From a virus, in UHGV virus genome UHGV-1451962: 64,000 nt of DNA, one strand, 5' to 3'. Below the pieces are notes generated by a model, which saw nothing but the letters and a program-made list of their open reading frames with translations, made no database searches and had not been told where the DNA came from. Each line of letters starts with the position of its first letter. Positions within the stretch are counted from its first letter, which is position 1. Made by a program: the position numbers and the translations under genes. Of this stretch, positions 1-32,424 are shown piece by piece.

Positions 1-131
1 TTGATAAACCAAATTTAAGTTTAAATATTTTATTACCTAAAAATGAACAAACTTTATTTGCTTTTGATAGATATTCAGAATTTTTATTTGCTGGAAAATG
101 CTGGCAAGTACAAGCCCCAGATTCGATTTCA

Positions 132-482
132 ATGAAGAATATTATTGAAGTTAATGCCGAAGAATATTATATTAATAAGGAAACAGATGATAAAATAGAA
201 GAAATTAAAAATGGTTTAGTTATAGAGCCTGTTGATCCTTCTCCTGATACAACTATAAAGGGAGAAACTTTTATTAAGCCTAATATTGCTGAAATATATG
301 AAGCCCCAGATGTGGGAGGAAAATGGAAAGTTGTTGAAAATTATCCAGTTTGTTTAATTCCTATTGATGATTTGCGGGTTAAAGTGATTTGGCAAAAATC
401 GGTTAGTGGACAATTTACTTTAGAATGGTATAAAGACCATATTGTAGAAACAAAAACAATAGTGGTAGAATCATTATTCTAA
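132..482 (+). CDS. hypothetical protein (virion module)
   Basis: 116-aa ORF in track; co-oriented and tightly packed with downstream structural genes; no recognisable motif. Confidence 0.35.
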   Translation: MKNIIEVNAEEYYINKETDDKIEEIKNGLVIEPVDPSPDTTIKGETFIKPNIAEIYEAPDVGGKWKVVENYPVCLIPIDDLRVKVIWQKSVSGQFTLEWYKDHIVETKTIVVESLF

Positions 483-501
483 AGTTAAAGGAGAAAAAGG
501 A

Positions 502-1038
502 ATGAAAAAAAATTTATATGAATTTCCAAAGTCTAGTTTTTTGGGTATGGCCAAAGATACAGCTTTGATTATAAATAAAATTTTAACCAATAAAAATATT
601 TTAAAATTAATTTATTATACTTCTAAAGATTGGAAAGATAAACCTGATTTAAATAGTCAACAAATAAAAGAATTATTTGAAAATAAACAAATATCTAATA
701 TACCTAAGATTACTGTTTTTCCAGATAAAGCTACTTATCTGAGAATTAGTTATGATGATTTTGTTCCGAATGATACTAATCCTTATTATAGAAATCATAT
801 GATAGATATTAAAATTATTTGCCATTATGATTCATGGGATTTAGGAGATTTTGAGTTAAGACCTTATCGCATAGCTGGGGAGTTAGATTCTATTTTAGAT
901 GGACAACATTTAACTGGAATTGGAGAATTACAGTTTCTTAGTGCAGAACAAATTCTCATAGATAATGAATTTGCAGGAATTAATTTAAGATATTGGGCCG
1001 TTAGAGGTAATGAAGATAAGGTTAATCCTTTGAATTAA
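502..1038 (+). CDS. hypothetical protein (virion module)
   Basis: 178-aa ORF; RBS-like aaaggag 7-9 nt upstream of ATG; no recognisable motif. Confidence 0.4.
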   Translation: MKKNLYEFPKSSFLGMAKDTALIINKILTNKNILKLIYYTSKDWKDKPDLNSQQIKELFENKQISNIPKITVFPDKATYLRISYDDFVPNDTNPYYRNHMIDIKIICHYDSWDLGDFELRPYRIAGELDSILDGQHLTGIGELQFLSAEQILIDNEFAGINLRYWAVRGNEDKVNPLN

Positions 1039-1039
1039 T

Positions 1040-1774
1040 ATGGATATTAAATTAGCATTAATGGCAGGTGTAGATATTCCTATACCTGAGTTACAAGCAA
1101 TTATTCATCAACCGCAATTAAAAGAAATTGCGAGGATGGGTGAACAAAATTTTTTTATGGCAATTCATTATTTATGTTTAAATAAAGAAGCTTTGTTAGA
1201 GGACGAAAGTCTTTTACAGAGTTTAACAAATTTTCAAGTATTGATGAAAGTTATTGAACAATCAGAAGATGCTGAGAAGAAAATAGCTTTAATAACTTTA
1301 CTTTCTCTTTTGTTTCCAGGATTTAAACCAATAATTACTCCAAAGAGCATTATTCTTAATAATTTGCAAACAAAACAAAGCATTTTGATAGATGATAATA
1401 ATTATGTTTTTTTACAAGAAATATTAAAACAAATGTTTTGTATAAGTAGTATTTTTCAGGGAGATAATGTTGTTTATAATCCTGCGAATGAAGCTGCAAA
1501 AAAAATTGCCGATAAATTAATGAAAGGCAGAAAAAGAGTTGCAGAATTAAAGGGAAAAAATCAAGAAAGCGTGTTAAGCAGATATGTTTCTATTTTAACG
1601 ATAGGGATTTCCTCTATGTCTTTAGAAAATTGTCTGGCTTTAACAATATATCAACTATTTGATTTAGTTGAAAGATATAATCTGTTTATTGAATGGGATT
1701 TAAATTTGCGGGTTAAACTTGCAGGTGGAGACCCCAAGCAAGATGCGGAAAATTGGATGAAAAACATTCATTAA
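1040..1774 (+). CDS. hypothetical protein (virion module)
   Basis: 244-aa ORF starting 2 nt after the previous stop (translationally coupled layout). Confidence 0.4.
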   Translation: MDIKLALMAGVDIPIPELQAIIHQPQLKEIARMGEQNFFMAIHYLCLNKEALLEDESLLQSLTNFQVLMKVIEQSEDAEKKIALITLLSLLFPGFKPIITPKSIILNNLQTKQSILIDDNNYVFLQEILKQMFCISSIFQGDNVVYNPANEAAKKIADKLMKGRKRVAELKGKNQESVLSRYVSILTIGISSMSLENCLALTIYQLFDLVERYNLFIEWDLNLRVKLAGGDPKQDAENWMKNIH

Positions 1775-1795
1775 TTTATAAGGAGGAAATTAAAC

Positions 1796-2737
1796 ATGAG
1801 ATTTGGTGTACGCGAAATCTGTGATGTTGTGTTGCGTGCTAAAGCAAGACAAACTCTAGGTACTCGTACTTTTTATAAGAATGAGCCTGTTCTTTATTTT
1901 GATACTTTAAAGACTTCTAGCCTAGAAGGTCAAGCTACCACAGTTTATGCTCAAGGCGGACGTGGTAACTCTAGATTAATTGCCTGGGAAGGCGAGAAGA
2001 CTCTTACATTTACAATGGAAGATGCACTGCTTTCTCCTGAAAGTTTTGCAATTCTTTCCGGTGCTGGTTTGATGGATGCTTCTGCGGAAGCCCCTATTTA
2101 TGTTCATACTACTTCTCAAGTGCAGGTTGATGCTCAAGGCAAGTTTACTGTGGATGGTAAAATTTGTTGGAATGGCGGTCGTGCACAAGAAGGAAATAAA
2201 GAAGGAACAAATTATGACTACCATAAAGAAGCAGATGTTTTCTGCATGGCTCTTGATGATGCTGGAGAGGTTAAAGTCGAGCCTTGTGTTCCTGCTTCCA
2301 TGACTTATGATGATACTAAGAAGAAAACTACTATTGTTTGTTATGCTGATGCTGAAGGTGTTGAGAAATTAGCTGAAGGTTCTGTTGTTCTTGTTGATTA
2401 TTATGTTAAGAAGATCGGCAATGCTAAGATGATTGAGATTACTCCTGATGAATTTGCTGGTAGTTATTACCTAGAAGGTTCTACTTTATTCCGTAGAGAG
2501 TCCGATGGTGTTGACATGCCTGCTGAGTTCATCATTCCTAATGGTAAGATTCAGTCTAACTTTACTTTCTCTATGGCAAGTTCTGGCGATCCTTCTACCT
2601 TTACCTTTACTATGGATGCTTTCCCTGGATATACTAAGTTTGATCCTACTAAAAAGGTTCTTGCTGCTATTCAGGTAATTGAAGATAGCACTGGTGAAGA
2701 TACCGCTTACCGCGAGAATTGTAAGGCGACTTTTTAA
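1796..2737 (+). CDS. putative major virion structural protein (capsid or tail-tube class), highly expressed
   Basis: 313-aa ORF with strong RBS (aaggagg) and by-eye GC-richer, biased codon usage (cgt/ggt/ctg) relative to neighbours; position upstream of tail genes. Confidence 0.4.
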   Translation: MRFGVREICDVVLRAKARQTLGTRTFYKNEPVLYFDTLKTSSLEGQATTVYAQGGRGNSRLIAWEGEKTLTFTMEDALLSPESFAILSGAGLMDASAEAPIYVHTTSQVQVDAQGKFTVDGKICWNGGRAQEGNKEGTNYDYHKEADVFCMALDDAGEVKVEPCVPASMTYDDTKKKTTIVCYADAEGVEKLAEGSVVLVDYYVKKIGNAKMIEITPDEFAGSYYLEGSTLFRRESDGVDMPAEFIIPNGKIQSNFTFSMASSGDPSTFTFTMDAFPGYTKFDPTKKVLAAIQVIEDSTGEDTAYRENCKATF

Positions 2738-2877
2738 TTACCCCAAATAGTAACGTTAAAATTAGTCAGCTAGGGAATACCTATTCTTTAGTTGGCACTG
2801 TAGATAAAACTGATATTCCCGTAGAATATCAAGGGCTATTTGGGGATATAGCAACAGAAGATACTTTAAATAAGTAT

Positions 2878-3126
2878 GTGCTTGTTAGATTAAATAATAT
2901 TATTCCTAAAAATGGTGCTACTATTATTCAAAAGAATGAAGCTTTAAAATATTATTATAATAAAGGTGATGTTAATATCACTGAAGTTGGTGGCATTTAT
3001 ACCAAGACTAAGGAATATGATGGAACTGATTCTGATTATGCTTTGTTAATTAAGATTGGTTCTACTGCGGAAGTTACTATTAATGATACTAAATATATTA
3101 TTGATGGTTCTAAATTAACTAATTAA
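2878..3126 (+). CDS. hypothetical small protein
   Basis: 82-aa ORF followed directly by a rho-independent terminator. Confidence 0.3.
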   Translation: MLVRLNNIIPKNGATIIQKNEALKYYYNKGDVNITEVGGIYTKTKEYDGTDSDYALLIKIGSTAEVTINDTKYIIDGSKLTN

Positions 3127-3133
3127 TAAAAAT

Positions 3134-3168
3134 AGGGAAGAGTTTTACTCTTCCCTATTTTTTGTTTT
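3134..3168 (+). terminator. rho-independent terminator
   Basis: 10-bp stem agggaagagt / actcttccct with 3-nt loop followed by attttttgtttt. Confidence 0.6.
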
Positions 3169-3179
3169 AAGGAGAAAAT

Positions 3180-4586
3180 ATGAGTAGTGATTTTGTTTTT
3201 GAATATGATGGAACTAGTTATCCTAATATTCATAGTAAACCTGAACATTATATAGGAGGAACTTTAATTCCTTATGCTCAAACAACAAATAAAATGGCAG
3301 CTATCAAAACAAGATACTTAAATATGATGAAAGCGCAACTCGCCAGCCAACAAACAGATGCTAAAAAGAAAGCTTTTATAGAAGGTATGGAATTAGCAAA
3401 ATTTGAAAAAATGGAAAAACAAATAGAAAATAAAATTGTTGAAGAATATAATAAAGCTGCGAGCAAATTAGGAGGAAATATTGGTGGATATAATATGGGA
3501 GTTGATGGATATGTTGCAGCTTTAAAATCAGGAGATAAAGATGGAGCAATAAAATCATTAGCTCAAATAATAGCTGTTTTTCACCAAAATAAAGATGCTG
3601 TTGCTTTATATGAAATGTTAAAAGATAATCCTCAACAAATTTATTCTGATATTTCTATAAACGAATTAATTAATGTTCAAGCTTTTATGAAAGTTATTGA
3701 AGCTGCTATGAATGGAGAAAATTATCGGAATACTCTAAATTCAATTTTAACTAAACCTTCAGAAGCTTTAGCAGCTTTAATAGGAACATATGCTGAAGCA
3801 AAAAGTGATACAGAAGTAAAAGATTTATTACTTGGTACTCAATCACAAAATATTAGAGTAAGTTTTAGTGGAGAATTTAAAGAAATTCAATCTAAATCCG
3901 CGGATATTAGTTTAGGAAATTCATATTTTTCTTATAATATGGGTGGTTCACAAGGCAGTCAAGGTATTGAGCTTTATGACACTTTTGATGTAGAAACTTT
4001 TGCTACTGTAAAGACTTATAGAACCGCGGGAGGTTTGTCTTTAACAAGTTATTCTGGAAAAAATTCTTTCTTAATTCCAGCTTTACATCAATTGTATGGT
4101 GGTGGAAACTCAATTGATTATCAAATATATAATACTTTAGCTTTTAGTGCAGGGCAAGAATCAGGAGCATTGGATACTAACTTTAGAATTATTCGGCAGG
4201 ATTTAATTGCTAAATTTGCGGAAAACTTTTTAATTGGTTTTAATACGGCTGAAGCACAAAGAGTATTAGTATATAATTTTAGAGCATATCCAGTATTAAC
4301 TATATTAGCTGATATAGTTAATGATGCTAAAAATGCGGTTAGAGAAGGAAATTTATATGGTTCTTTAAGTAGTGGTGATTTATTTAGTATTTCTTTGACT
4401 AAAAGTGCTGTTGATAATAGTTGGGTTGGTCAAAAAGATATAACAAATAAAGCAAATAAAGCTGTTCGTGTAAAAAGAGCTTATAATCAAATTAATAGTA
4501 TTGCAATGCAAGGTCATATTAGTGGTAGATATGTTAGTTCTAATTTAAGAAAATATTTAACAGCGGCGAATGGAATACCTATTTAA
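3180..4586 (+). CDS. virion structural protein (possible major tail or sheath-class protein)
   Basis: 468-aa ORF with strong RBS (aaggag), located between the putative major structural gene and the chaperone-like and tape-measure genes. Confidence 0.4.
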   Translation: MSSDFVFEYDGTSYPNIHSKPEHYIGGTLIPYAQTTNKMAAIKTRYLNMMKAQLASQQTDAKKKAFIEGMELAKFEKMEKQIENKIVEEYNKAASKLGGNIGGYNMGVDGYVAALKSGDKDGAIKSLAQIIAVFHQNKDAVALYEMLKDNPQQIYSDISINELINVQAFMKVIEAAMNGENYRNTLNSILTKPSEALAALIGTYAEAKSDTEVKDLLLGTQSQNIRVSFSGEFKEIQSKSADISLGNSYFSYNMGGSQGSQGIELYDTFDVETFATVKTYRTAGGLSLTSYSGKNSFLIPALHQLYGGGNSIDYQIYNTLAFSAGQESGALDTNFRIIRQDLIAKFAENFLIGFNTAEAQRVLVYNFRAYPVLTILADIVNDAKNAVREGNLYGSLSSGDLFSISLTKSAVDNSWVGQKDITNKANKAVRVKRAYNQINSIAMQGHISGRYVSSNLRKYLTAANGIPI

Positions 4587-4650
4587 AATTTGCTTTTTTG
4601 TTAAATAAGTAGTATAATAAAAATAGAAATGATAAAAAGGAGATTTAAAA

Positions 4651-5199
4651 ATGTCTAAAGTTACTTTTAGTAAAATAAATATGAAAATGAAGATGAAAGA
4701 TGAATATGCGACTATTTATCTTAATCCAGAACTTGATGAGGAATTTAAAGTAGAAGTGCGTCAATATTTACCAATTGAGCAAAAGGCAGCTTTAATTACT
4801 TTTATTGCAGAAAACGCGATTGATGAAAAGACTGGTTGCTTTAGTGAAATTAGAATTGAGACTTATTTTGCTCTTGCTATTGCTAAGTATTATGCAGGAA
4901 TTGCTTTTACTGACAAGCAAATTGAAAATGCTGCTAAAATTTATGATGTATTAGAGAGTAATGGAGTTTTTACTAGAATTATGAGTGCTATTCCTGAATC
5001 TGAGTTTAACTTTTTAACTAATGCCGTTAGTAAAACTATTGCCGATATTGCAAGATTTAATAATTCTTTTGCCGGAATGTTGAATATGATCTCTGATAAT
5101 GCGGGCGGCATGGATGAACAGTTTACTGAAATTTTAGAGAAGATTAAGAATGGTGAAGGTTTAGAGACTCTTTCTGAAATTAAGAATATTGTTGGCTAA
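4651..5199 (+). CDS. putative tail assembly chaperone
   Basis: 182-aa acidic protein immediately upstream of the tape-measure-like gene; assignment is by synteny only. Confidence 0.3.
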   Translation: MSKVTFSKINMKMKMKDEYATIYLNPELDEEFKVEVRQYLPIEQKAALITFIAENAIDEKTGCFSEIRIETYFALAIAKYYAGIAFTDKQIENAAKIYDVLESNGVFTRIMSAIPESEFNFLTNAVSKTIADIARFNNSFAGMLNMISDNAGGMDEQFTEILEKIKNGEGLETLSEIKNIVG

Positions 5200-5250
5200 A
5201 TTAAGATAATATATTTCTAATAAATATTAAAATTTTATAGAGAATTTTTT

Positions 5251-5288
5251 AAAGCTCTGAGAAATTTCTCAGAGCTTTAATTTTTTAT
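5251..5288 (+). terminator. rho-independent terminator
   Basis: Perfect palindrome aaagctctgagaaa/tttctcagagcttt followed by aattttttt. Confidence 0.55.
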
Positions 5289-5316
5289 ATGCACAAAGAG
5301 TGAAAGGAGATTAATT

Positions 5317-8300
5317 ATGGCTAAAAGACTTAATTATGAAGTAGGCTTTACTGGCGATACTTCACAATTAAAAGCGTCTTTAAATGATGCTGTAAAAGCT
5401 TTACAAAAATTAGGTACTTCTTCAACTACTCAAATGACTCAGGGTATGCGGGAAGCATCTAAATCTGCATTAGAATTAGCTAATAATTTAAAAACTGCTA
5501 CTAATCAAGAAACAGGAAAATTAGATTTAGTAACTTTTAATAGAAATTTAGCTAATAGTAAGATGACCATTAGTGATTATGCTAAGCAATTATCTCAATT
5601 AGGCCCTACTGGTCAGCAAGCTTTTATGAAAGTTGCGCAAGCAGTTACTTCTGCGGAATTACCAATGAGACGTACTAATAAAGTATTGGATGAATTGTGG
5701 ACAACAATGAAAAATACTGCTCGTTGGCAATTAACCTCAAGTGCGTTGCATGGATTTATGGGAGCTTTAAATACTTGTGTTGGATATTCTAAAGCTTTAG
5801 ATAAATCTTTAAATTCTATCAGAATTGTTACTGAACAATCAGCTGAACAAATGGCTGATTTTGCAGTTCAAGCTAATAGTGCTGCAAAAAATTTAAGTAC
5901 AACAACAACAGATTATACGGATGCAGCATTGATATATTATCAACAAGGTTTAAATGACAAAGAAGTTCTTGATAGAACTGATATTACTATTAAAATGGCC
6001 AATGCCGCAAATGAAAGTGCTCAAGTAGTTTCTGACCAATTAACTGCGGTTTGGAATAACTTTTATGATGGTTCACAATCATTAGAGCATTATGCTGATG
6101 CGATGGTGGCGTTAGGTGCTGCTACTGCTTCTAGTTCAGATGAAATTGCTGGCGGCTTAGAGAAGTTTGCATCAATCGCAGACATGATTGGGTTAAGCTT
6201 TGATTATGCTGCTTCTGCTTTAGCAACAATTACTGCTACAACTCGTCAAAGCGAAGATGTTGTTGGTACTGCTTTGAAAACTATTTTTGCTCGTATTCAA
6301 GGTTTGAATTTAGGAGAGACCCTTGAAGATGGCACTGATTTAAATAAATATTCAGAAGCTTTGAGCAAAGTTGGTGTTTCAATTAAAGATTCTAATGGCG
6401 ATTTGCGTAATATGGATGCTATCTTAGATGATATAGGCGCAAAATGGGGTACTTTAACAAAAGACCAACAAGTAGCATTAGCGCAAACAGTAGCCGGCGT
6501 TCGTCAATACAACCAGTTAGTTTCTTTAATGGATAATTGGGATTTCTTTGAAGATAATTTAAAGATTGCCCAAAATTCTGAAGGTGAATTAAATAAGCAG
6601 GCTGATATTTATGCAGAATCTTGGGAGGCCGCGAGAAAAAGAGTTAAAGCTGCGGCAGAAGATATTTATGATAGCATTTTGAATCCTGAGAGCATTGTTG
6701 CTATTGATGATGTTTTAACTCCATTTTTAAGTGGAATAGCGCAAGTTGTTAATGCTTTAGGTGGATTAAAAGGTATTGCTTTAGTTGTTGGTTCTGTCCT
6801 TACTTCTGTTTATAGTGGTAAATTGGTAAATGGTTTACAAAATTTTGCTACTAATATTCAGATTATGACTGGACTTCAAGGAAAATTAACAAGAAGCTTA
6901 CAAGAACAAACCGTAACTGAAGCAGAAAATCTTGATATTATAATTGGTGGTAATCGTGCTTTAGAAACTGAAATTTCTTTGATGCGAGAAAAAGTTCAGT
7001 TACAAGGTATGATTAATAAATATACCAAGAATTATGACCAAAGTCAAATGTTACAAGTCAATCAGCGAGTAGGCGTTATTGATGCTTTGCGTCAACAAAT
7101 TATGGCTTCTGCTCAAAAACAAACTGCTTTGTTGGGTGAAGCTGAAGAATTTAAAACAACTATATTGTTAGATATAGAGCCAAAACCTGGTTGGGAAGAA
7201 AGATTTAGACAGAAAATTTTACAATTTAATACTAATATGGTTAATGGGCCATTAAAAAATCTTAATTCTGTCTTTTTATTTGATGAAAAAGATGATATAA
7301 CAAGAACTACTGAAAAAGTTACAGCAAGTATGCAAAAGTTAGCTTCTCAAGCTAGTTCTATAGAAGCAGTAAGACGAGCTTATAGCAATTTAAATATAGA
7401 TCAAAAAGAAAGTGCCGTTGTTTTACAAGAATTAATTCAAAAGACTGGTTTATGGAAAGCAGAAATGCAAAATTGGTCTACTCCTAAATTACAAGAATTT
7501 TTGAATAACTTAGGTACTCAATCAATAGAAGCTTCTAAAGGGATGCAACTTTTAAAACAAGCTTTAATGGAATTAAGTTATTCTCCTGAAGCTATTGATC
7601 AATTTATTAATTCGATAAGAAGATTAGCCGCTGAAGAACATAGTGCCGCAGAATATACAAGATTAATTAATGAAGAAATAAAAAAATTTACGAACAGTTT
7701 GCAAACTGGTAGTATTCAAAGTGAATCGGGTTGGGCAAAAACTGTTGTAAGCATGTCTAATCATCTTATGAATTTCGGAATGACTCTTTCCGCAGTTAGT
7801 AATATGGGTAAAGTTTTCAAAGAATCTATGGAAGGAAATATTACTGCGGGAGAAGCTTTCATTCAAATTATGACTAATTTGGGTATGATTTTGATGAGTG
7901 GCAGTAGCCTTTTCATGGCTTTGTCAAAATCAATGGGTGCTCTTGTTTCAGTTTATACTGGTGTAAATACTTCAGTAGCAGCTCTTACTTTTGTTACAAA
8001 ATTAAATACTGCGGCTGAAGAAGGAAATATAGCTGCAAAAATAGCTAATGTTGCAATTACAAAATTGCTTACTGTTTCAGAAGGTAGTTTAGCTGCTGCT
8101 ATGGGTATAACTATTGGCGTTTTAGCTCTTTTTGCGGCTGGAATTGTGTTTGCTGTAAAAATAATTGATGGTTTAATTGTAACTCAAAAAGAAGCCAGTC
8201 AAGCTATTGCGGATGCTACTCAAAATTATACTGATCAAAAGAGCAAATTAGATGAGTTAAATAGTTCTTTAGAGCAAACTAGACAAAAGATAGAAGAATT

Positions 8301-27402: not shown

Positions 27403-28051
27403 ATTTTAATTCTATGGCTTTAATTTCCTTATAATTTTTAGCAGTATAAATTTGTGTTTTATATTGTTGCATTTTTTTATAATAAGGATAAACAAAATCA
27501 GAAATAGCTAAAGCTAAAGCAGTCAAATTTTCAACTGTCCAAGATGTACATTCTTCTTGGCGAGCATGCCATTCTAATCTAGGATTCTCTGCTCCAGCCT
27601 GAACTGCCATAGAATATTGATTCATATTTAGGCTAATTTCTGATTGATCTTCTTCTGTAACTCCATATTGCTTTCCATCAATCCAAGTCAAAGGATTATT
27701 AATGAGGAAATTAGCGAAAGCTTTTTTATTTTCTTCTTGTTTCATTTTTTGATATTCTTCTAAAGAATAGTAATATGTTAATTCATTTTTTTCATTATCA
27801 TATTTATAAAAATTAGGTTCATAATCTTCTGGAATATTACCATCAAAAGATAAGATTCTTACTGCATCAATAGAACCTGTCATATCTGAATTAGCCAAAA
27901 TGAAATGGCTATTGCAATCTGAGCCTATTACTCCTGTAGCTTCACCTTCCGAGCAAGCAATGACAATACTTGGGTTGGATTGTAATTTGATGTAGCGGAT
28001 TTCCGCAAGGATATCGACTACTATATTTTCTCTATTGATTAATAAATACAT
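27392..28051 (-). CDS. hypothetical protein, translationally coupled to the DGR reverse transcriptase
   Basis: 219-aa ORF whose start overlaps the RT stop by 1 nt; no recognisable motif. Confidence 0.4.
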   Translation of the reverse strand: MYLLINRENIVVDILAEIRYIKLQSNPSIVIACSEGEATGVIGSDCNSHFILANSDMTGSIDAVRILSFDGNIPEDYEPNFYKYDNEKNELTYYYSLEEYQKMKQEENKKAFANFLINNPLTWIDGKQYGVTEEDQSEISLNMNQYSMAVQAGAENPRLEWHARQEECTSWTVENLTALALAISDFVYPYYKKMQQYKTQIYTAKNYKEIKAIELKYEN

Positions 28052-29307
28052 TATAATATTTCAACTCCTTTAAATAATGAATGGAAATAATTATCAAGAT
28101 TTTGTATAATATAAAAAGTAGTACCTTTATTTATATGTTCTCTAAAACCTCGATATGATTCTTGAATTTCTATATCAGTTATTTTACCTTGTAGCCAAAG
28201 TTGGTGCATTTTTCTCATTTTTCTATATTGTCGCTTTATTTTCTTTTTAAATGGAGTTTGAATAATTTTATTCGTATTAGTTAAATAAAAATCCCATTTT
28301 AAATATTTAAATGGATTATGTTTATCCGAACGTCTTTTATGAGGATAATTATTTTTATCTAGTTTTATTGGACTAATTTTAATTATTTTAGTTTTTCTTT
28401 TGTTACATTTTAAATGTATTTTATTTAATTCATTTTCAATTTTATTAAGACATTCTTTTAAATAATCTTTGTCATTATGCAAAATATAAATATCGTCCAT
28501 ATAACGTCCATAATATTTTAAATGCAAATGCTCTTTTGCATAATGGTCAATTCCATTTAATGCCAATAAAGCTAATAATTGAGATGCTTGACTACCTAAA
28601 CCTAAACTTTTATGATTAAATTCATAATAAGTACAATTTTTATAAAATTGTTTAGGATAAATTATCTTATATTTTTGTTTTTTGATGATATAGTATTGTT
28701 TATTAGGAATAGGAACTGTATCTTTTGTGACTGAAAAACAAAAGGTATCAATAATATAATCAATTAATTTAAATACTCGTTTTTCTTTAATATAATGTTT
28801 TGCCATTTGCTTTAAAGAATTATGGTCTATTGAATCAAAAAATTTTTGAATATCAATTCTTAAACCATAAAAAGATTTTCCTAAACCATATGTTCTGTGC
28901 GCTGCTTGTAAATGTTTACGCACTTCTAGCAAAGCAAAATCAATTCCTTTTCCTTTTAATGTAGCACAATTATCATAAATAAATTTTGGAGTTAGTTCTG
29001 GAATAAGAACTTGCGAACATAATGTATTTTGTGCCAATCTGTCATAAATATGGCACGCTCTTATATCTCTGGGTTTGCCCCGCTCAATTATACTAAAACT
29101 GTTAAAAACTAATTGTTCATAACTGTCATTTTCTAATTGTTCTTTAAGCGTTAAGATGTTATTTAATCTATTTTCTTCAAAATTAACTGTACTATCTTTC
29201 CATCTTACGTTTCGGCAAATAGAATAAGAAGAATCATAAAAAGCGTCAAAATTACAAAAACGCTGGAAAAGATTTTCTTCTATAAAAAATTCTCCTTTTT
29301 TTATCAT
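28051..29307 (-). CDS. DGR-type reverse transcriptase
   Basis: 418 aa; RT motif 2 (GLRIDIQKFFDSIDH), DGR-type motif 4 (GLGSQASQ = GxxxSQ), catalytic YMDD (YGRYMDDIYIL); lies directly downstream of the TR in the canonical target-avd-TR-RT order. Confidence 0.85.
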   Translation of the reverse strand: MIKKGEFFIEENLFQRFCNFDAFYDSSYSICRNVRWKDSTVNFEENRLNNILTLKEQLENDSYEQLVFNSFSIIERGKPRDIRACHIYDRLAQNTLCSQVLIPELTPKFIYDNCATLKGKGIDFALLEVRKHLQAAHRTYGLGKSFYGLRIDIQKFFDSIDHNSLKQMAKHYIKEKRVFKLIDYIIDTFCFSVTKDTVPIPNKQYYIIKKQKYKIIYPKQFYKNCTYYEFNHKSLGLGSQASQLLALLALNGIDHYAKEHLHLKYYGRYMDDIYILHNDKDYLKECLNKIENELNKIHLKCNKRKTKIIKISPIKLDKNNYPHKRRSDKHNPFKYLKWDFYLTNTNKIIQTPFKKKIKRQYRKMRKMHQLWLQGKITDIEIQESYRGFREHINKGTTFYIIQNLDNYFHSLFKGVEIL

Positions 29308-29588
29308 GCGGTGCTAGATTGTGTGCTCTGACACGCACATCCGCAATCTTAATTAATTATCTGTATAGATAAAAGGTTAAATTCTCCTTAAATGAAAGCT
29401 ATCTATTATAATCTAAGTCTTTTATTTAATATTTCCTCTCCTTCTTGGTTTTAAAACCAATGCGTCCAGAAAATACCAAAATAGATGAGTTATAACATAG
29501 GTTATAATTTTCTGGGGTAACACTTAGTCGTCTCAGTCGATGTCGCCTGCGGCTCCATCACCAGAGACAGTTAGAGTTCTCATCTAAT

Positions 29589-29693
29589 CGGGCGCGAGGT
29601 AATTGTTGTTGTTGTAGTTGGTATTGTTCGCATTACCATCAGAGTTGACATTGCACACATTGTTCGTGTTGTTCGAGTTGTAGTAGCGAGACC
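29589..29693 (-). repeat. DGR template repeat (TR)
   Basis: About 105 nt, 84/105 identical to the VR; 20 of 21 differences lie at plus-strand T (adenine on the transcribed minus strand); non-coding, between the Avd-like ORF and the RT. Confidence 0.85.
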
Positions 29694-29726
29694 CGCGATA
29701 TTTTAGAATTTAACCAAATAAAAAAA

Positions 29727-30191
29727 TTATTTGTATCGCTGAGAATAAATTAGATTATCTCTATTTATTCTATCAAGAAGATTTTGTTTTAATTTGTAAG
29801 TAAGTTTAGCAACATATTTGAAAGATTTATTTTTCTTTTTATTATTTAACCCATATTCATAAATACATAAATCTAATTGCCTTAAAATTGAATCACAATA
29901 TCTTATTGATTTATTAAAGTAATCTGCTCTTTCAACTAAAGTTTTTTTATTTTTTAGATTGATTAAACTAGCAGAGAAAGCATATCCATGTGCGTTTTTG
30001 GCACATTTTAAAATATCTGCACCAAAAGCTGAATAATAGTATGGATTACCAAGAATACCTGGTTTAATATGAGAACCATCATCTAATTCTTGATATGGAC
30101 GAACTAAAATTAATACTTGATGGACTAACTTTCTTGCATCATTTAAATAATCATTTTTAGATTGATGCCTATCTTTTTTTCTTACTGACAA
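29727..30191 (-). CDS. avd: Avd-like accessory variability determinant (putative)
   Basis: 154-aa basic (Lys/Arg-rich) ORF with TTG start after aaaggagg, placed between VR and TR as Avd is in known DGRs; assignment by position and composition only. Confidence 0.5.
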   Translation of the reverse strand: MSVRKKDRHQSKNDYLNDARKLVHQVLILVRPYQELDDGSHIKPGILGNPYYYSAFGADILKCAKNAHGYAFSASLINLKNKKTLVERADYFNKSIRYCDSILRQLDLCIYEYGLNNKKKNKSFKYVAKLTYKLKQNLLDRINRDNLIYSQRYK

Positions 30192-30225
30192 ATTAAAAAC
30201 CTCCTTTAAATAACGTACAAGAAAT

Positions 30226-30254
30226 ATTATACCAGAAAATTTTTAAAAAGTCAA
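30226..30254 (-). promoter_or_regulatory. sigma70-like promoter for the avd-TR-RT transcript
   Basis: On minus strand: TTGACT, 17-nt spacer, TATAAT (exact consensus -10), preceded by an A/T-rich UP-like tract; about 35 nt upstream of the avd TTG start. Confidence 0.5.
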
Positions 30255-30315
30255 AGAAAAAAAATTTTTAGAAAAAATTTTTTTCCCAGAAAAGGTGAAA
30301 GCATTTTTATACTAT

Positions 30316-30341
30316 GGCATTGGCCCTTTTGGGCCAATGCC
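30316..30341 (-). promoter_or_regulatory. GC-rich hairpin 3' of the VR (candidate DGR target-recognition hairpin)
   Basis: Perfect 11-bp inverted repeat ggcattggccc / gggccaatgcc with 4-nt loop, about 30 nt downstream of the target-gene stop; no U-run on the minus strand, so it is not a canonical terminator. Confidence 0.5.
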
Positions 30342-30369
30342 AATATAACCTTACTGTATAACTTTACAG

Positions 30370-32154
30370 TTATCCAATAACGAAAGCGGGCGCGAGGTAA
30401 CGGTAGTTGGCGTAGTAGGTAAAGTCCGCACCACCATCAGAGTCGACACGGCACACATAGCCCGTGTAGTCCGAGTAGTAGTTGCGAGACCGCTCCCAAT
30501 ACCATTTGGAATCTCCTGAACTGTTACCATTAGCATCTTGAATGTTTTTTATACGGGAGCTGTCACTTGTGTAATAATCATAAGCAGCATTATATCCTTT
30601 AGTACATTCTGCATTGGAAACAGTAGAATTAGCAGTGCTGATTGGAGAATAACTATCTAATCCCATTTCTCTCTCAGAAGGAATCCAAACAGTTTCGTTA
30701 TTATAACTAACATTAGCACTTCTATTATCATCCCAATTATCGCAAGTACCTTTAGATACTGTTTTTATAGATGCTTTAGCAGCACAAGCATTATAAAAAT
30801 TTTGACAATAACTTCTAGCATTAGAACCAATCCATTGTGCGCTATTATCACCAAAAGTAGTCATATTCGGCAAGAGATAAACACTATGAAAAGCTAAAGT
30901 TTTATCTCCATCTTTGTCATAGCCAATACAACGCATTGTAACAGCATTTGCTCCTAAAACATTAGTAGATAAATTCATCTTTTTAGTTTTACCAACTAAA
31001 GCTTGACGTTCTGAAGCAGAAGAATTGTTAAGCCAAGACTTTAAGCCAGCCCACCAAGAAGCATCTCCCGCAGCACTCTCATTTCCCCAAGTCCAATATG
31101 TAGCAGTAGCAGTAATTTTTTTATTCGCGGGAGTTGTATAATTGGTACTGGCTGCTATTGATACAGTAATAGTAGCAGTTCCCGCGGTTGTACCATTGCC
31201 TTTAATGGTAATTGTTTTACCGCTTACTGTTGCTGAAGCCACATTAGAATTAGTAGAAGTTACAGAAATTGTACCAGTAGAATTAGTGGTCACAGTAACT
31301 TTTACACCAGTAGAATAATTAGATGCGTCAATAGAAACAGTAGAAGTGCTTAGACTTAATGTTCCTGTTGCTTTTTGAATAGACCAATCAACATTTTTCG
31401 CGGTTGTTGTCTTATCAGGCCATCTGTAATTATTTTTAGGAGTAAAAGTAGCTGTATATTTTCCTGCATTAATTCCCGATGTAGTTCCTCCAATAGTCAT
31501 GTAACTTGTATTATAATTTGACCAATTTGGACTTTGCGAATTGGCGTTATAAGTTAAAGTTCCAGTTTGAGAAGGAATAGGAACTGTTTTTCTTTCTACT
31601 GTTACAGAAAAAGTAGTAGTTTTAGTAATACTATTTTCTGTATAAGAAACAGTAATTGTTTGAGTACCAACTGTATTTAAAACAGAAGGTGAAGTTGTCC
31701 AACCAGAAACAGTAGCGGTTTTACCATCAGAATAAGTGGCAGTAACAGACATTCCGGCAGATTCAAATGTCTCGCCATATTCATAAATTGTCTTAGTTGG
31801 TTTTGTGCTTGTGATGCTGGTTAGTGCATGGATAACAGTAACTGCTTGCTCGGCGGTACAAGTAACTCCTCCTTCAGAGTAAGTAATAGTAACTTTAGTT
31901 ACTCCATCAGTTAAAGGAGAAGGTGTTACAGTATATCCAGTTACCGCAGTAGAAGAAACAACAATATTATCAATGGCATAATTGGCAGTTATAACCATTC
32001 CTGTTGTTTCAAATTCTTGTCCAGCAACGTAAGATGTACGGTTTGGTGGAGTAGTAACTTCAATAGAGTGGAGTGCTATTGAGCTTCCGCCACCTTTTCC
32101 GCCTTGTTCAGTTAAAATGCATTTAACAGGCAAGGTATAAGACCTCCTTATCAA
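30370..32154 (-). CDS. DGR target protein: Ig-like repeat protein with C-terminal lectin-fold-like variable domain
   Basis: 594-aa ORF; tandem Thr/Ser-rich Ig-like segments (e.g. GVTKVTITYSEGGVTCTAEQAVTVIH), then a C-terminal domain containing WIPSEREMGL and the VR; likely true start is the TTG at 32133 (9 nt after aaggagg) rather than 32154. Confidence 0.8.
   Translation of the reverse strand: MIRRSYTLPVKCILTEQGGKGGGSSIALHSIEVTTPPNRTSYVAGQEFETTGMVITANYAIDNIVVSSTAVTGYTVTPSPLTDGVTKVTITYSEGGVTCTAEQAVTVIHALTSITSTKPTKTIYEYGETFESAGMSVTATYSDGKTATVSGWTTSPSVLNTVGTQTITVSYTENSITKTTTFSVTVERKTVPIPSQTGTLTYNANSQSPNWSNYNTSYMTIGGTTSGINAGKYTATFTPKNNYRWPDKTTTAKNVDWSIQKATGTLSLSTSTVSIDASNYSTGVKVTVTTNSTGTISVTSTNSNVASATVSGKTITIKGNGTTAGTATITVSIAASTNYTTPANKKITATATYWTWGNESAAGDASWWAGLKSWLNNSSASERQALVGKTKKMNLSTNVLGANAVTMRCIGYDKDGDKTLAFHSVYLLPNMTTFGDNSAQWIGSNARSYCQNFYNACAAKASIKTVSKGTCDNWDDNRSANVSYNNETVWIPSEREMGLDSYSPISTANSTVSNAECTKGYNAAYDYYTSDSSRIKNIQDANGNSSGDSKWYWERSRNYYSDYTGYVCRVDSDGGADFTYYANYRYLAPAFVIG
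30387..30491 (-). repeat. DGR variable repeat (VR) at the 3' end of the target gene
   Basis: Matches the TR with substitutions almost exclusively at TR adenine positions; encodes the C-terminal ~35 residues (…YYSDYTGYVCRVDSDGGADFTYYANYRYLA…); shared GC-rich 3' boundary cgggcgcgagg. Confidence 0.85.
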
Positions 32155-32250
32155 GAATTATTATTAGAGTTTTAAAACTCCATCATTATTTATAGAATAA
32201 AGTACACCTTTTAGATTAATTGGGAACGTACTTTCCATAAAAAATGTAAA

Positions 32251-32286
32251 ATTGGGAAAAGGATATAAAAATATCCTTTTCCCAAT
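32251..32286. repeat. perfect 16-bp-arm palindrome in the divergent intergenic region
   Basis: attgggaaaaggatat-aaaa-atatccttttcccaat; flanked at 32199-32210 and 32383-32394 by a 12-bp inverted repeat (aaagtacacctt / aaggtgtacttt). Confidence 0.6.
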
Positions 32287-32424
32287 ATAAAAATATATTC
32301 TAAAAGTTTGGATATCTTATCCTTTTCATCTATACTTAAAGATTATTTTAATTAATTTTCCTTAGATTGACCAATGTTTCATAAGGTGTACTTTTTAAAC
32401 TTATATTTTGAAAGGAGTTTTTAA

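Follow-up and report, generated by a model that had tools for sequence, protein, structure and literature searches.

A conserved RNA fold beside the template repeat as the probable priming element of a phage diversity-generating retroelement

The stretch of DNA analysed here, referred to as the window, comprises 64,000 nucleotides (nt) of the virus genome UHGV-1451962 and carries a complete diversity-generating retroelement (DGR) on its minus strand. Read 5′ to 3′ on that strand, the DGR consists of a target gene with the variable repeat (VR), a gene for an Avd-like accessory protein, the template repeat (TR), a spacer and the gene for the reverse transcriptase (RT). The spacer is very probably the cis-acting priming part, or “Sp”, of the DGR template RNA, laid out on the plan of the Bordetella phage DGR. 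Its fold is conserved among relatives and belongs to the minus-strand transcript, its helices are maintained by compensatory changes, and one of them lies at the boundary where the homology of TR and VR ends. The element is a well-supported further example of the known self-priming DGR RNA and not a new kind of element.

The core of the structure is formed by four short strands, termed U, F, P and S, which are listed with all other features in Table 1. U lies just 5′ of the TR and is paired with S, which is perfectly complementary to it in the window. This first helix has 11 base pairs (bp), is paired in 93.8% of alignment cells and shows compensatory changes at 8 of its 11 pairs. F lies 3′ of the TR, behind a single unpaired and invariant adenine (A29588), and is paired with P in a second helix, in which 98.2% of cells are paired and 6 of 9 pairs are compensatory. 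The terminal position of P is an A paired with U in 23 of the 25 aligned sequences. Because F:P and U:S flank the TR, the TR is looped out between them, and F is predicted to be the template side of a template:primer duplex. The other helices are local. They form H1 (helices 3–5; 10 of 13 pairs compensatory), a hairpin with 61.5% GC (99.9th percentile), the small hairpin SL2 (helix 6; 4 of 6 pairs), which was also predicted independently by RNAalifold, and a three-tier hairpin at the 3′ end (helices 7–9; 9 of 12 pairs; 57.9% GC).

The initial annotation of this region, made from the sequence alone, had described 29308–29588 as a spacer with no credible open reading frame (ORF) and with GC-rich stretches at 29520–29588 and 29308–29345 that stand out against an AT-rich background, and it had put forward the RNA 3′ of the TR as a candidate for the structure that primes synthesis of complementary DNA (cDNA). 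Only chance ORFs of 20–33 amino acids (aa) are found there, as that description implies, and the insertions and deletions among relatives have lengths that are not multiples of three. A small ORF after an internal AAGGAG was dropped as a candidate, as it has no start codon at a workable distance. The GC content is 30.3% in the window as a whole, 49.3% in the first stretch (98.8th percentile for windows of equal length) and 57.9% in the second (99.6th percentile), with 25.9% in the 174 nt between them, and these two islands turn out to be the hairpin adjoining the TR and the hairpin adjoining the RT gene. The spacer starts at A29588, the TR/VR homology ending at G29589, and the functional RNA also takes in the 11 nt of 29705–29715 beyond the TR. 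The folding energy of the spacer by itself is modest (z of −3.0 and −3.2 on the two strands) and, being similar on both strands, does not discriminate. The candidate role in priming is supported by the folding of the RNA, by covariation and by a part-by-part match to the Bordetella system.

The covariation evidence comes from a clade of DGRs whose RTs are 52–66% identical, beyond which identity drops sharply to 35% or less. RT homologues at E of 1e-20 or better number 1926, the majority of them outside this close clade. The comparison set comprises about 45 distinct relatives on large gut-phage contigs; L-numbers denote loci and P-numbers proteins. The contigs are viral or metagenomic and up to ~150 kb long, and some have been binned with metagenome-assembled genomes of Oscillospiraceae, Eubacterium and Clostridia. 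One metagenome contig (L168, ERZ1023658) encodes an RT identical to that of the window and is probably the same phage. Among deposited phage genomes no close relatives were found, the best RT match being 31.6% identical.

The spacer is homologous in all close relatives, in which conserved blocks alternate with variable stretches. The main alignment contains 25 distinct sequences in three modules joined end to end. Its columns were placed by MAFFT without structural input, and misplacements (L248 by one column, the window within H1) count against the structure. Over nine helices with 51 pairs, 93.4% of cells are paired, compared with 38–48% when the partners are slid by one to three columns, and 37 of the 51 pairs show changes on both sides. 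The covariation score is 0.459, compared with 0.09–0.11 for slid partners and 0.21 for shuffled alignments, none of 500 shuffles being as high. Since many of the sequences are closely related, cell counts overstate the number of independent events, and it is safer to judge by how many distinct pair types occur at each position.

From lineage to lineage the helices are built of entirely different sequences, with complementarity kept. F:P occurs as UUAGAUGG:CAUCUAA, CAAGAUGG:UAUCUUG, UAAACAAAA:UUUUGUUUA, AAAACAAAU:AUUUGUUUU and UUAGAAAAA:UUUUUCUAA, and S:U is found in at least six versions, with S as AGAAUUUAACC, AGAACUUGAC, AAGGUUUAUCC or AGGGAUCAUCC, each with its own complement. G-U pairs are frequent; 14 sequences, for instance, have GU at pair 60/164, and 14 have UG at pair 188/212. 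The opposite strand would have C-A mismatches in their place, so it is the minus-strand transcript on which the constraint acts.

The arrangement U...F...P-GG-S was also sought blindly in the 640 nt upstream of each RT in 54 distinct sequences. The expected strands were recovered in 51 of these, 50 of them with scores of 16.5–18.5 out of 19 and L003 with 14.5, compared with a mean of 12.7 and a maximum of 16 in shuffled sequences. Three further loci (L027, L028 and L251) were mis-registered and were corrected by hand.

Structure prediction, which the initial annotation had named as a check along with covariation, gives the same architecture. The unconstrained minimum-free-energy (MFE) fold of the 443-nt window RNA contains both U:S and F:P, at −99.9 kcal/mol, and single-sequence folding recovers the two long-range helices fully or minus one bp in 11 of 18 lineages, their paired strands being ~190 to 330 nt apart. 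Both SL2 and the three-tier hairpin are also predicted by RNAalifold from the 3′ domain, and 13 of the 17 pairs involved are compensatory. A covariance model of this 3′ domain matches every close locus once and in the same place, just upstream of the RT (29297–29399 in the window, 80.6 bits). In about 150 distant DGR loci (RT ≤35% identical) it gives marginal matches only. Two of these, L087 2884–2995 (E 0.16) and L202 2221–2319 (E 0.95), are full-length and lie directly upstream of RTs that are 32–34% identical; they may be remote relatives of the same RNA. A match in L148 is spurious, as it falls inside the RT gene. At gathering thresholds, no Rfam family matched anywhere in the window, and a search of 29200–30400 at E up to 1 gave chance-level scores only (16–22 bits, compared with gathering thresholds of 62–100).

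The position of F:P relative to the repeats is equally constant. TR and VR of the window differ at 22 positions, 21 of which are adenines in the TR, and the same adenine bias is seen in nearly all of 47 distinct TR/VR pairs from relatives. In all 47 distinct pairs, the homology ends at the G preceding A plus F, which means that the F:P duplex sits where cDNA synthesis must begin. The idea that the A after the TR is a mutagenised first base was rejected, as the VR starts at that point with CTTTCGT..., a sequence conserved among relatives; the homology simply ends at the G.

These parts suggest a course of events like that in the Bordetella system. U, the TR and the spacer would all be part of a single minus-strand transcript, whose start is probably upstream of the Avd-like gene. 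S would pair with U and, only the two bases GG away, P would pair with F at the 3′ edge of the TR. U:S and F:P would then lie end to end, with the whole 105-nt TR bulging out between them. A29388 would stand opposite U29587, and the next template bases would be A29588 and then G29589, the last base of the TR/VR homology. The RT would be held by the 3′ three-tier hairpin and the A-rich linker, and an Avd-like pentamer would be held by H1. Synthesis of cDNA would start from the 2′-OH of A29388; while copying the TR, the RT would make errors at adenines, and it would halt at the U:S duplex.

Table 1. Features of the DGR and of the predicted RNA element in the window, in 5′ to 3′ order on the minus strand
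Feature	Position	Strand	Remarks
Target gene, 594 aa, Big_3 domain	32154..30370	minus	VR at its 3′ end
VR	30491..30387	minus	From the TR/VR comparison
Promoter-like site, TTGACT, 17 nt, TG-TATAAT (extended -10)	30254..30226	minus	Consensus match only
Avd-like accessory gene, 154 aa, predicted four-helix bundle	30191..29727	minus	From fold and position
U strand, GGUUAAAUUCU	29715..29705	minus	Starts 11 nt after the Avd-like stop codon (29729..29727), just 5′ of the TR
TR, 105 nt	29693..29589	minus	From the TR/VR comparison; looped out between U:S and F:P
Unpaired A, then F strand, UUAGAUGAG	A29588; F 29587..29579	minus	Directly 3′ of the end of TR/VR homology
H1, GC-rich three-tier hairpin with GNA triloop	29568..29530	minus	10 nt after F
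Variable inserted domain, 133 nt, AT-rich	29529..29397	minus	Between H1 and P
Pairing CCAGAA/UUCUGG in inserted domain	29510-29515 with 29466-29471	minus	
M strand, CUCAUCUA	29489..29482	minus	Second complement of F, in inserted domain
Hairpin in inserted domain	29445-29460	minus	
Purine tract, GAAGGAGAGGAAA	29432-29444	minus	In inserted domain
F′, F-like, AUAGAUAG	29406..29399	minus	In inserted domain, just upstream of P
P strand, UUCAUUUAA	29396..29388	minus	Complementary to F; 3′-terminal A29388
GG linker	29387..29386	minus	Between P and S; first G invariant, second in at least 90% of sequences
S strand, AGAAUUUAACC	29385..29375	minus	Pairs with U (helix 1)
SL2, small hairpin UUAUCU-AUAC-AGAUAA	29372..29357	minus	Just after S; followed by the A-rich stretch
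A-rich single-stranded linker, UUAAUUAAGAU	29356..29346	minus	Conserved A and G positions
3′ three-tier hairpin, 5+4+3 bp, two internal loops, pentaloop	29345..29307	minus	Ends at the annotated ATG
RT ORF, 418 aa, DGR reverse transcriptase	29307..28051	minus	Pfam RVT_1, E 7e-15
Shine-Dalgarno sequence AAGGAG of the RT gene	29297..29292	minus	10 bases past the 3′ hairpin; 3′ limit of the RNA element

The spacer could instead be mainly a 5′ untranslated leader, regulating RT translation and playing no part in priming; the 3′ hairpin might, for example, be an operator to which the RT binds, or it might cover the start region. This hairpin does have the A of the annotated ATG as its last base, with 10 nt from there to the RT Shine-Dalgarno sequence, and the window has no canonical in-frame start codon after the Shine-Dalgarno sequence. 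A leader of this kind is nevertheless improbable as the explanation, because it leaves unexplained the two long-range helices that bracket the TR exactly, the near-invariant A-GG junction and the hairpin adjoining the TR; leader and priming roles are, moreover, compatible with each other. That the complementarity acts in DNA, as a cruciform or as a recombination or homing signal, is very improbable. A DNA hairpin downstream of the VR does matter in the Bordetella system (PMC3240598), and folding energy alone is similar on both strands, but the many G-U pairs of the minus-strand transcript are C-A mismatches on the other strand, and helices with strands ~190 to 330 nt apart are implausible as cruciforms. 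It is scarcely credible that the patches of high GC content and the hairpins predicted in this intergenic DNA arose by chance. A folding z of −3, equal on both strands, is modest enough to allow it, yet the spacer is conserved across RTs that are only 52–66% identical, and chance is contradicted by the 37 compensatory pairs and the 500 shuffles, by the single covariance-model match at the same position in each locus, and by the 47 homology ends, the 11 of 18 folds and the RNAalifold prediction.

A further alternative concerns which strand primes. The inserted part of the spacer, which ranges from ~48 nt (L027) to ~173 nt (L252) among relatives, contains in the sub-clade of the window a strand M, which complements F over 8–11 bp at a conserved offset of 82–98 nt from it. 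In 7 of 10 lineages carrying M this complementarity stands out from shuffles (p 0.000–0.030); it is not significant in the window (p 0.117) or in L090 (p 0.067). Compensatory changes between M and F are few, being seen in the window, L254 and L251 and at two alignment pairs; the F variant of L251, CAAGAUGG, has its match, CCAUCUUG, in the M strand of that locus. With U left out, the MFE structure of the spacer is one in which F pairs with M. These observations would fit M as the primer in place of P, or in alternation with it, which is quite improbable: 6 of the 17 lineages tested have no M and keep P-GG-S, as is seen in L027/L028, L248, L249/L253, L252 and L255, M is not followed by GG and a strand that pairs upstream of the TR, and forcing F:M in the full RNA costs 22 kcal/mol relative to F:P plus U:S. 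Because M is missing in some lineages and F:M is energetically costly, the primer is taken to be P, and M is regarded as an addition particular to some lineages. M could represent an intermediate of folding or act as a switch, for which the evidence is thin.

The 133-nt inserted domain of the window is a lineage-specific insertion. The idea that it is a built-in two-state switch in the sub-clade of the window, and not a passive insertion, is tentative and on the whole unlikely. The domain has in M a near-copy of the primer strand and in F′ a near-copy of the template strand. In one state, F:M together with F′:P could sequester the primer and the start site, and in the other, F:P plus U:S could form the priming-competent structure. 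The choice may be set by whether U is free; as U starts 11 nt past the avd-like stop codon, a terminating ribosome could cover it. The covariation of M with F in at least three lineages counts for such a switch, as does the fact that F:M is the MFE structure without U and F:P plus U:S the MFE structure with it. Counting against it, M:F′ and F′:P show little or no covariation (M:F′ is conserved in its complementarity, with no covariation), and other lineages have no M altogether. If a switch did exist, one RNA molecule would choose between the roles of messenger RNA and template, which is speculation. The same domain contains a conserved purine tract, which reads AAGAAGGAGAAGGAA in relatives (L001, L006–L024, L174–L183) and has no obvious pairing partner.

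Several points weigh against reading the spacer as a priming element of the Bordetella type. Transcription, protein binding, priming from a 2′-OH and termination at U:S are all steps that we infer by analogy. The alignment modules were partly located by way of complementarity, which leans the alignment toward structure. In BPP-1, the Bordetella phage used as a positive control, the blind search did not rank the known helices at the top, and null scores equalled the best match. The BPP-1 helices contain wobble pairs, non-standard pairs and a bulge and lie in GC-rich sequence; given this failure, the blind search is specific to clades with near-perfect helices and cannot serve for detection in general. 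Even with filters off and E up to 10, the covariance model of the 3′ domain found nothing in BPP-1 1–6000. As there is neither detectable sequence similarity to BPP-1 nor an Rfam family, the likeness is architectural and common descent is unproven. F lies outside the TR/VR homology here and the template strand lies inside the TR in Bordetella, and the first template base is A here and G in Bordetella. The existence of M as a second complement of F means that the priming strand is not settled by sequence alone. Finally, the Avd assignment of the 154-aa protein is made from fold and position only.

The RT has the DGR motif GxxxSQ, of which G238, S239, Q240, S242 and Q243 are invariant across relatives, and it is 23% identical to the Bordetella RT, bRT (E 2e-17), with GSQASQ aligned to GSLTSQ. 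It also contains an insertion of ~45 residues relative to bRT (residues ~189–233; 28609–28743), which lies directly before GxxxSQ and is conserved in the clade. The start of the RT gene is ambiguous. The ATG assumed by the initial annotation (29307..29305) has its ribosome-binding site, AAGGAG at 29292–29297, on its 3′ side and no Shine-Dalgarno sequence of its own, and the pairing of the 3′ hairpin extends up to and includes its A. The only in-frame candidate after the conserved AAGGAG in the window is ATA (29283..29281). Relatives have ATG, TTG or GTG 6–11 nt past the conserved AAGGAG; in L025, an ATG lies 7 nt past it and the product starts MSEINQ, as in P0002. The upstream “ATG” is replaced by ACG, ACA or CTG in L088, L184, L090 and L029.

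The Avd-like protein is encoded between the target gene and the TR and is predicted to fold into a four-helix bundle (pLDDT 91.9). Its best matches in the Protein Data Bank (PDB) by Foldseek are the S23-family proteins 2rld and 2gsc, and it superposes on Bordetella phage Avd (4dwl_D) with a TM score of 0.80 and a root-mean-square deviation of 2.7 Å, the Foldseek E-values being weak (0.013–0.7). At the sequence level no match was found in Pfam, PHROGs, a PDB sequence search or a profile comparison with Bbp7. An identical copy of the protein is on record as “Caudoviricetes sp.”.

Upstream of the Avd-like gene, a sigma-70-type promoter-like site (11 of 12 consensus matches plus the TG extension) is the best in 29200–32400 and is a candidate start of a transcript covering the avd-like gene, TR, spacer and RT. 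No terminator-like site was found downstream of it, and thus none between the TR and the RT. Both observations, which are matters of consensus matching only, are consistent with one transcript. The promoter-like site sits between the Avd-like gene and a perfect 12-bp hairpin at 30315–30342 (minus strand UGGCAUUGGCCC-AAAA-GGGCCAAUGCCA), which lies ~45 nt downstream of the VR and past the target stop codon, lacks a T-run and may be a terminator-like or target-recognition element. Relatives have other hairpins downstream of the VR at varying distances; a conserved DGR target signal at this place was ruled out, as neither sequence nor position is conserved. A second VR was not found within the 64-kb window.

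Two further observations concern the relatives. In most close loci (L001–L024, L248–L254), in-frame TAG codons interrupt the RT and target genes under the standard code. In L006 (3001–4188), for example, TTG AGT TAG TAG TAG ACA corresponds to MMRREKLNQQKTSF of P0018, and look-ups of TAG-interrupted proteins return “translates to query: no”. These observations suggest that the phages concerned decode TAG as an amino acid. In the window, standard-code ORFs of at least 150 aa cover 56.9 of 64 kb. In another group of loci (L006–L023, L177–L183 and L210, with the VR ~740 nt upstream of the TR end), the TR and spacer are near-identical and the VRs differ, with 4–12 differences over the last 41 nt, nearly all at TR adenines. 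As the VRs differ despite the near-identical TR and spacer, the retroelement appears active in natural populations. L024, which has a shorter TR loop of 94 nt, shows VR differences at non-adenine TR positions (three at C, five at G), and L013 shows three of the non-adenine kind; decay, recombination or an error of assembly could be the cause.

Structured RNAs have been described beside bacterial RT genes before. Comparative analysis yielded the RNA motifs RT-1 to RT-19, some of which may, as its authors suggest, be parts of DGRs or retrons (Weinberg et al. 2017, PMC5737381). The present element is likewise a structured RNA that adjoins an RT gene and was found by comparative analysis; no Rfam family, including any derived from those motifs, matches the region. 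Retron msr-msd RNAs resemble it in being RT-associated non-coding RNAs, in having flanking inverted repeats that join the nucleotide priming through its 2′-OH to the start of the template, and in having their template enclosed by a long-range helix. Retrons, in contrast, have a conserved priming G and have no TR/VR pair, no adenine mutagenesis and no Avd, and identity with a retron is excluded by the TR/VR pair, the DGR GxxxSQ motif in the RT and the A at the junction.

The likeness to the Bordetella phage Sp extends from one end of the RNA to the other. That Sp is 140 nt long and has been seen by cryo-electron microscopy in the bRT-Avd:RNA complex (Handa et al., bioRxiv 10.1101/2023.10.23.563531; PMC6182149, PMC5703328). 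Both RNAs lie between TR and RT and on the same strand relative to them. In Bordetella, Sp3–33 forms the stem-loop that binds Avd (Handa et al.); here, too, a hairpin lies just past the template site, and H1 is its likely positional counterpart. The Bordetella primer strand, Sp47–56, then pairs with TR118–129, and A56 primes through its 2′-OH opposite template G117 (Handa et al.). P is similarly a strand ending in A that lies next to the first template base, and A29388 is predicted to be the priming nucleotide and the counterpart of A56. Two linker bases are followed by Sp59–70, which forms the “cPRT stop” duplex with the 3′-terminal part of avd, upstream of the TR (Handa et al.). Compensatory restoration of pairing did not rescue the stop duplex in Bordetella. 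A 2-nt linker followed by a strand that pairs upstream of the TR is present here as well, with 11 bp in both systems, and U would be the counterpart of the avd strand. In L027 and L028, the S strand has an extra U, which leaves two cells unpaired in the alignment and recalls the unpaired U63 of Bordetella. A short hairpin, adenosines engaged in A-minor contacts and a single-stranded “thumb ring” follow in Bordetella (Handa et al.). Here, a small hairpin is likewise followed by adenosines, with a single-stranded stretch of ~11–13 nt in the two systems, and the A-rich linker would be the positional counterpart of those adenosines and of the thumb ring. The Bordetella RNA ends in the RT-binding hairpin Sp95–139, which is long and has two internal loops (Handa et al.); the 3′ three-tier hairpin, which also has two internal loops and lies just before the RT gene, is its likely counterpart. 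From P to the end of this last hairpin there are 90 nt here and 93 nt in Bordetella (Sp47–139).

There are differences as well. The spacer is ~280 nt long compared with 140 nt, twice the length because a 133-nt domain replaces the 13-nt linker that joins the Avd hairpin to the primer strand in Bordetella; across the clade, this linker can hold ~48 to ~173 extra nt. U is intergenic and follows the stop codon of the Avd-like gene, whereas the corresponding Bordetella strand lies inside the avd coding sequence. The linker is GG here and GC in Bordetella, and the loops are a GNA triloop and a pentaloop compared with UNCG and a heptaloop.

Self-priming of DGRs has been worked out in one system, the Bordetella phage, and its generality has so far been argued from fold predictions on single sequences. 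The present clade adds independent evolutionary evidence that the same layout, in which the TR is looped out between primer and stop duplexes with hairpins for the accessory protein and the RT at either end, is subject to selection in a DGR with an RT of only 23% identity to bRT. It also predicts a testable priming base, A29388, and a testable cDNA start at 29588/29589. The clade consists of large gut phages that are uncultured, and the covariance model of the 3′ domain could be used to annotate it. Avd-binding stem-loops and cPRT stop duplexes have been predicted in 207 of 278 DGRs from distant taxa, including Bacillota, by folding single sequences with MXfold2 over 40 nt upstream and 100 nt downstream of the TR (bioRxiv 10.1101/2023.10.23.563531). 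The primer and stop strands described here start ~190 nt downstream of the TR, beyond that 100-nt range, so that searches confined to it would miss them. The same two features as in that survey are present in this DGR, and here they are backed by compensatory changes across lineages.

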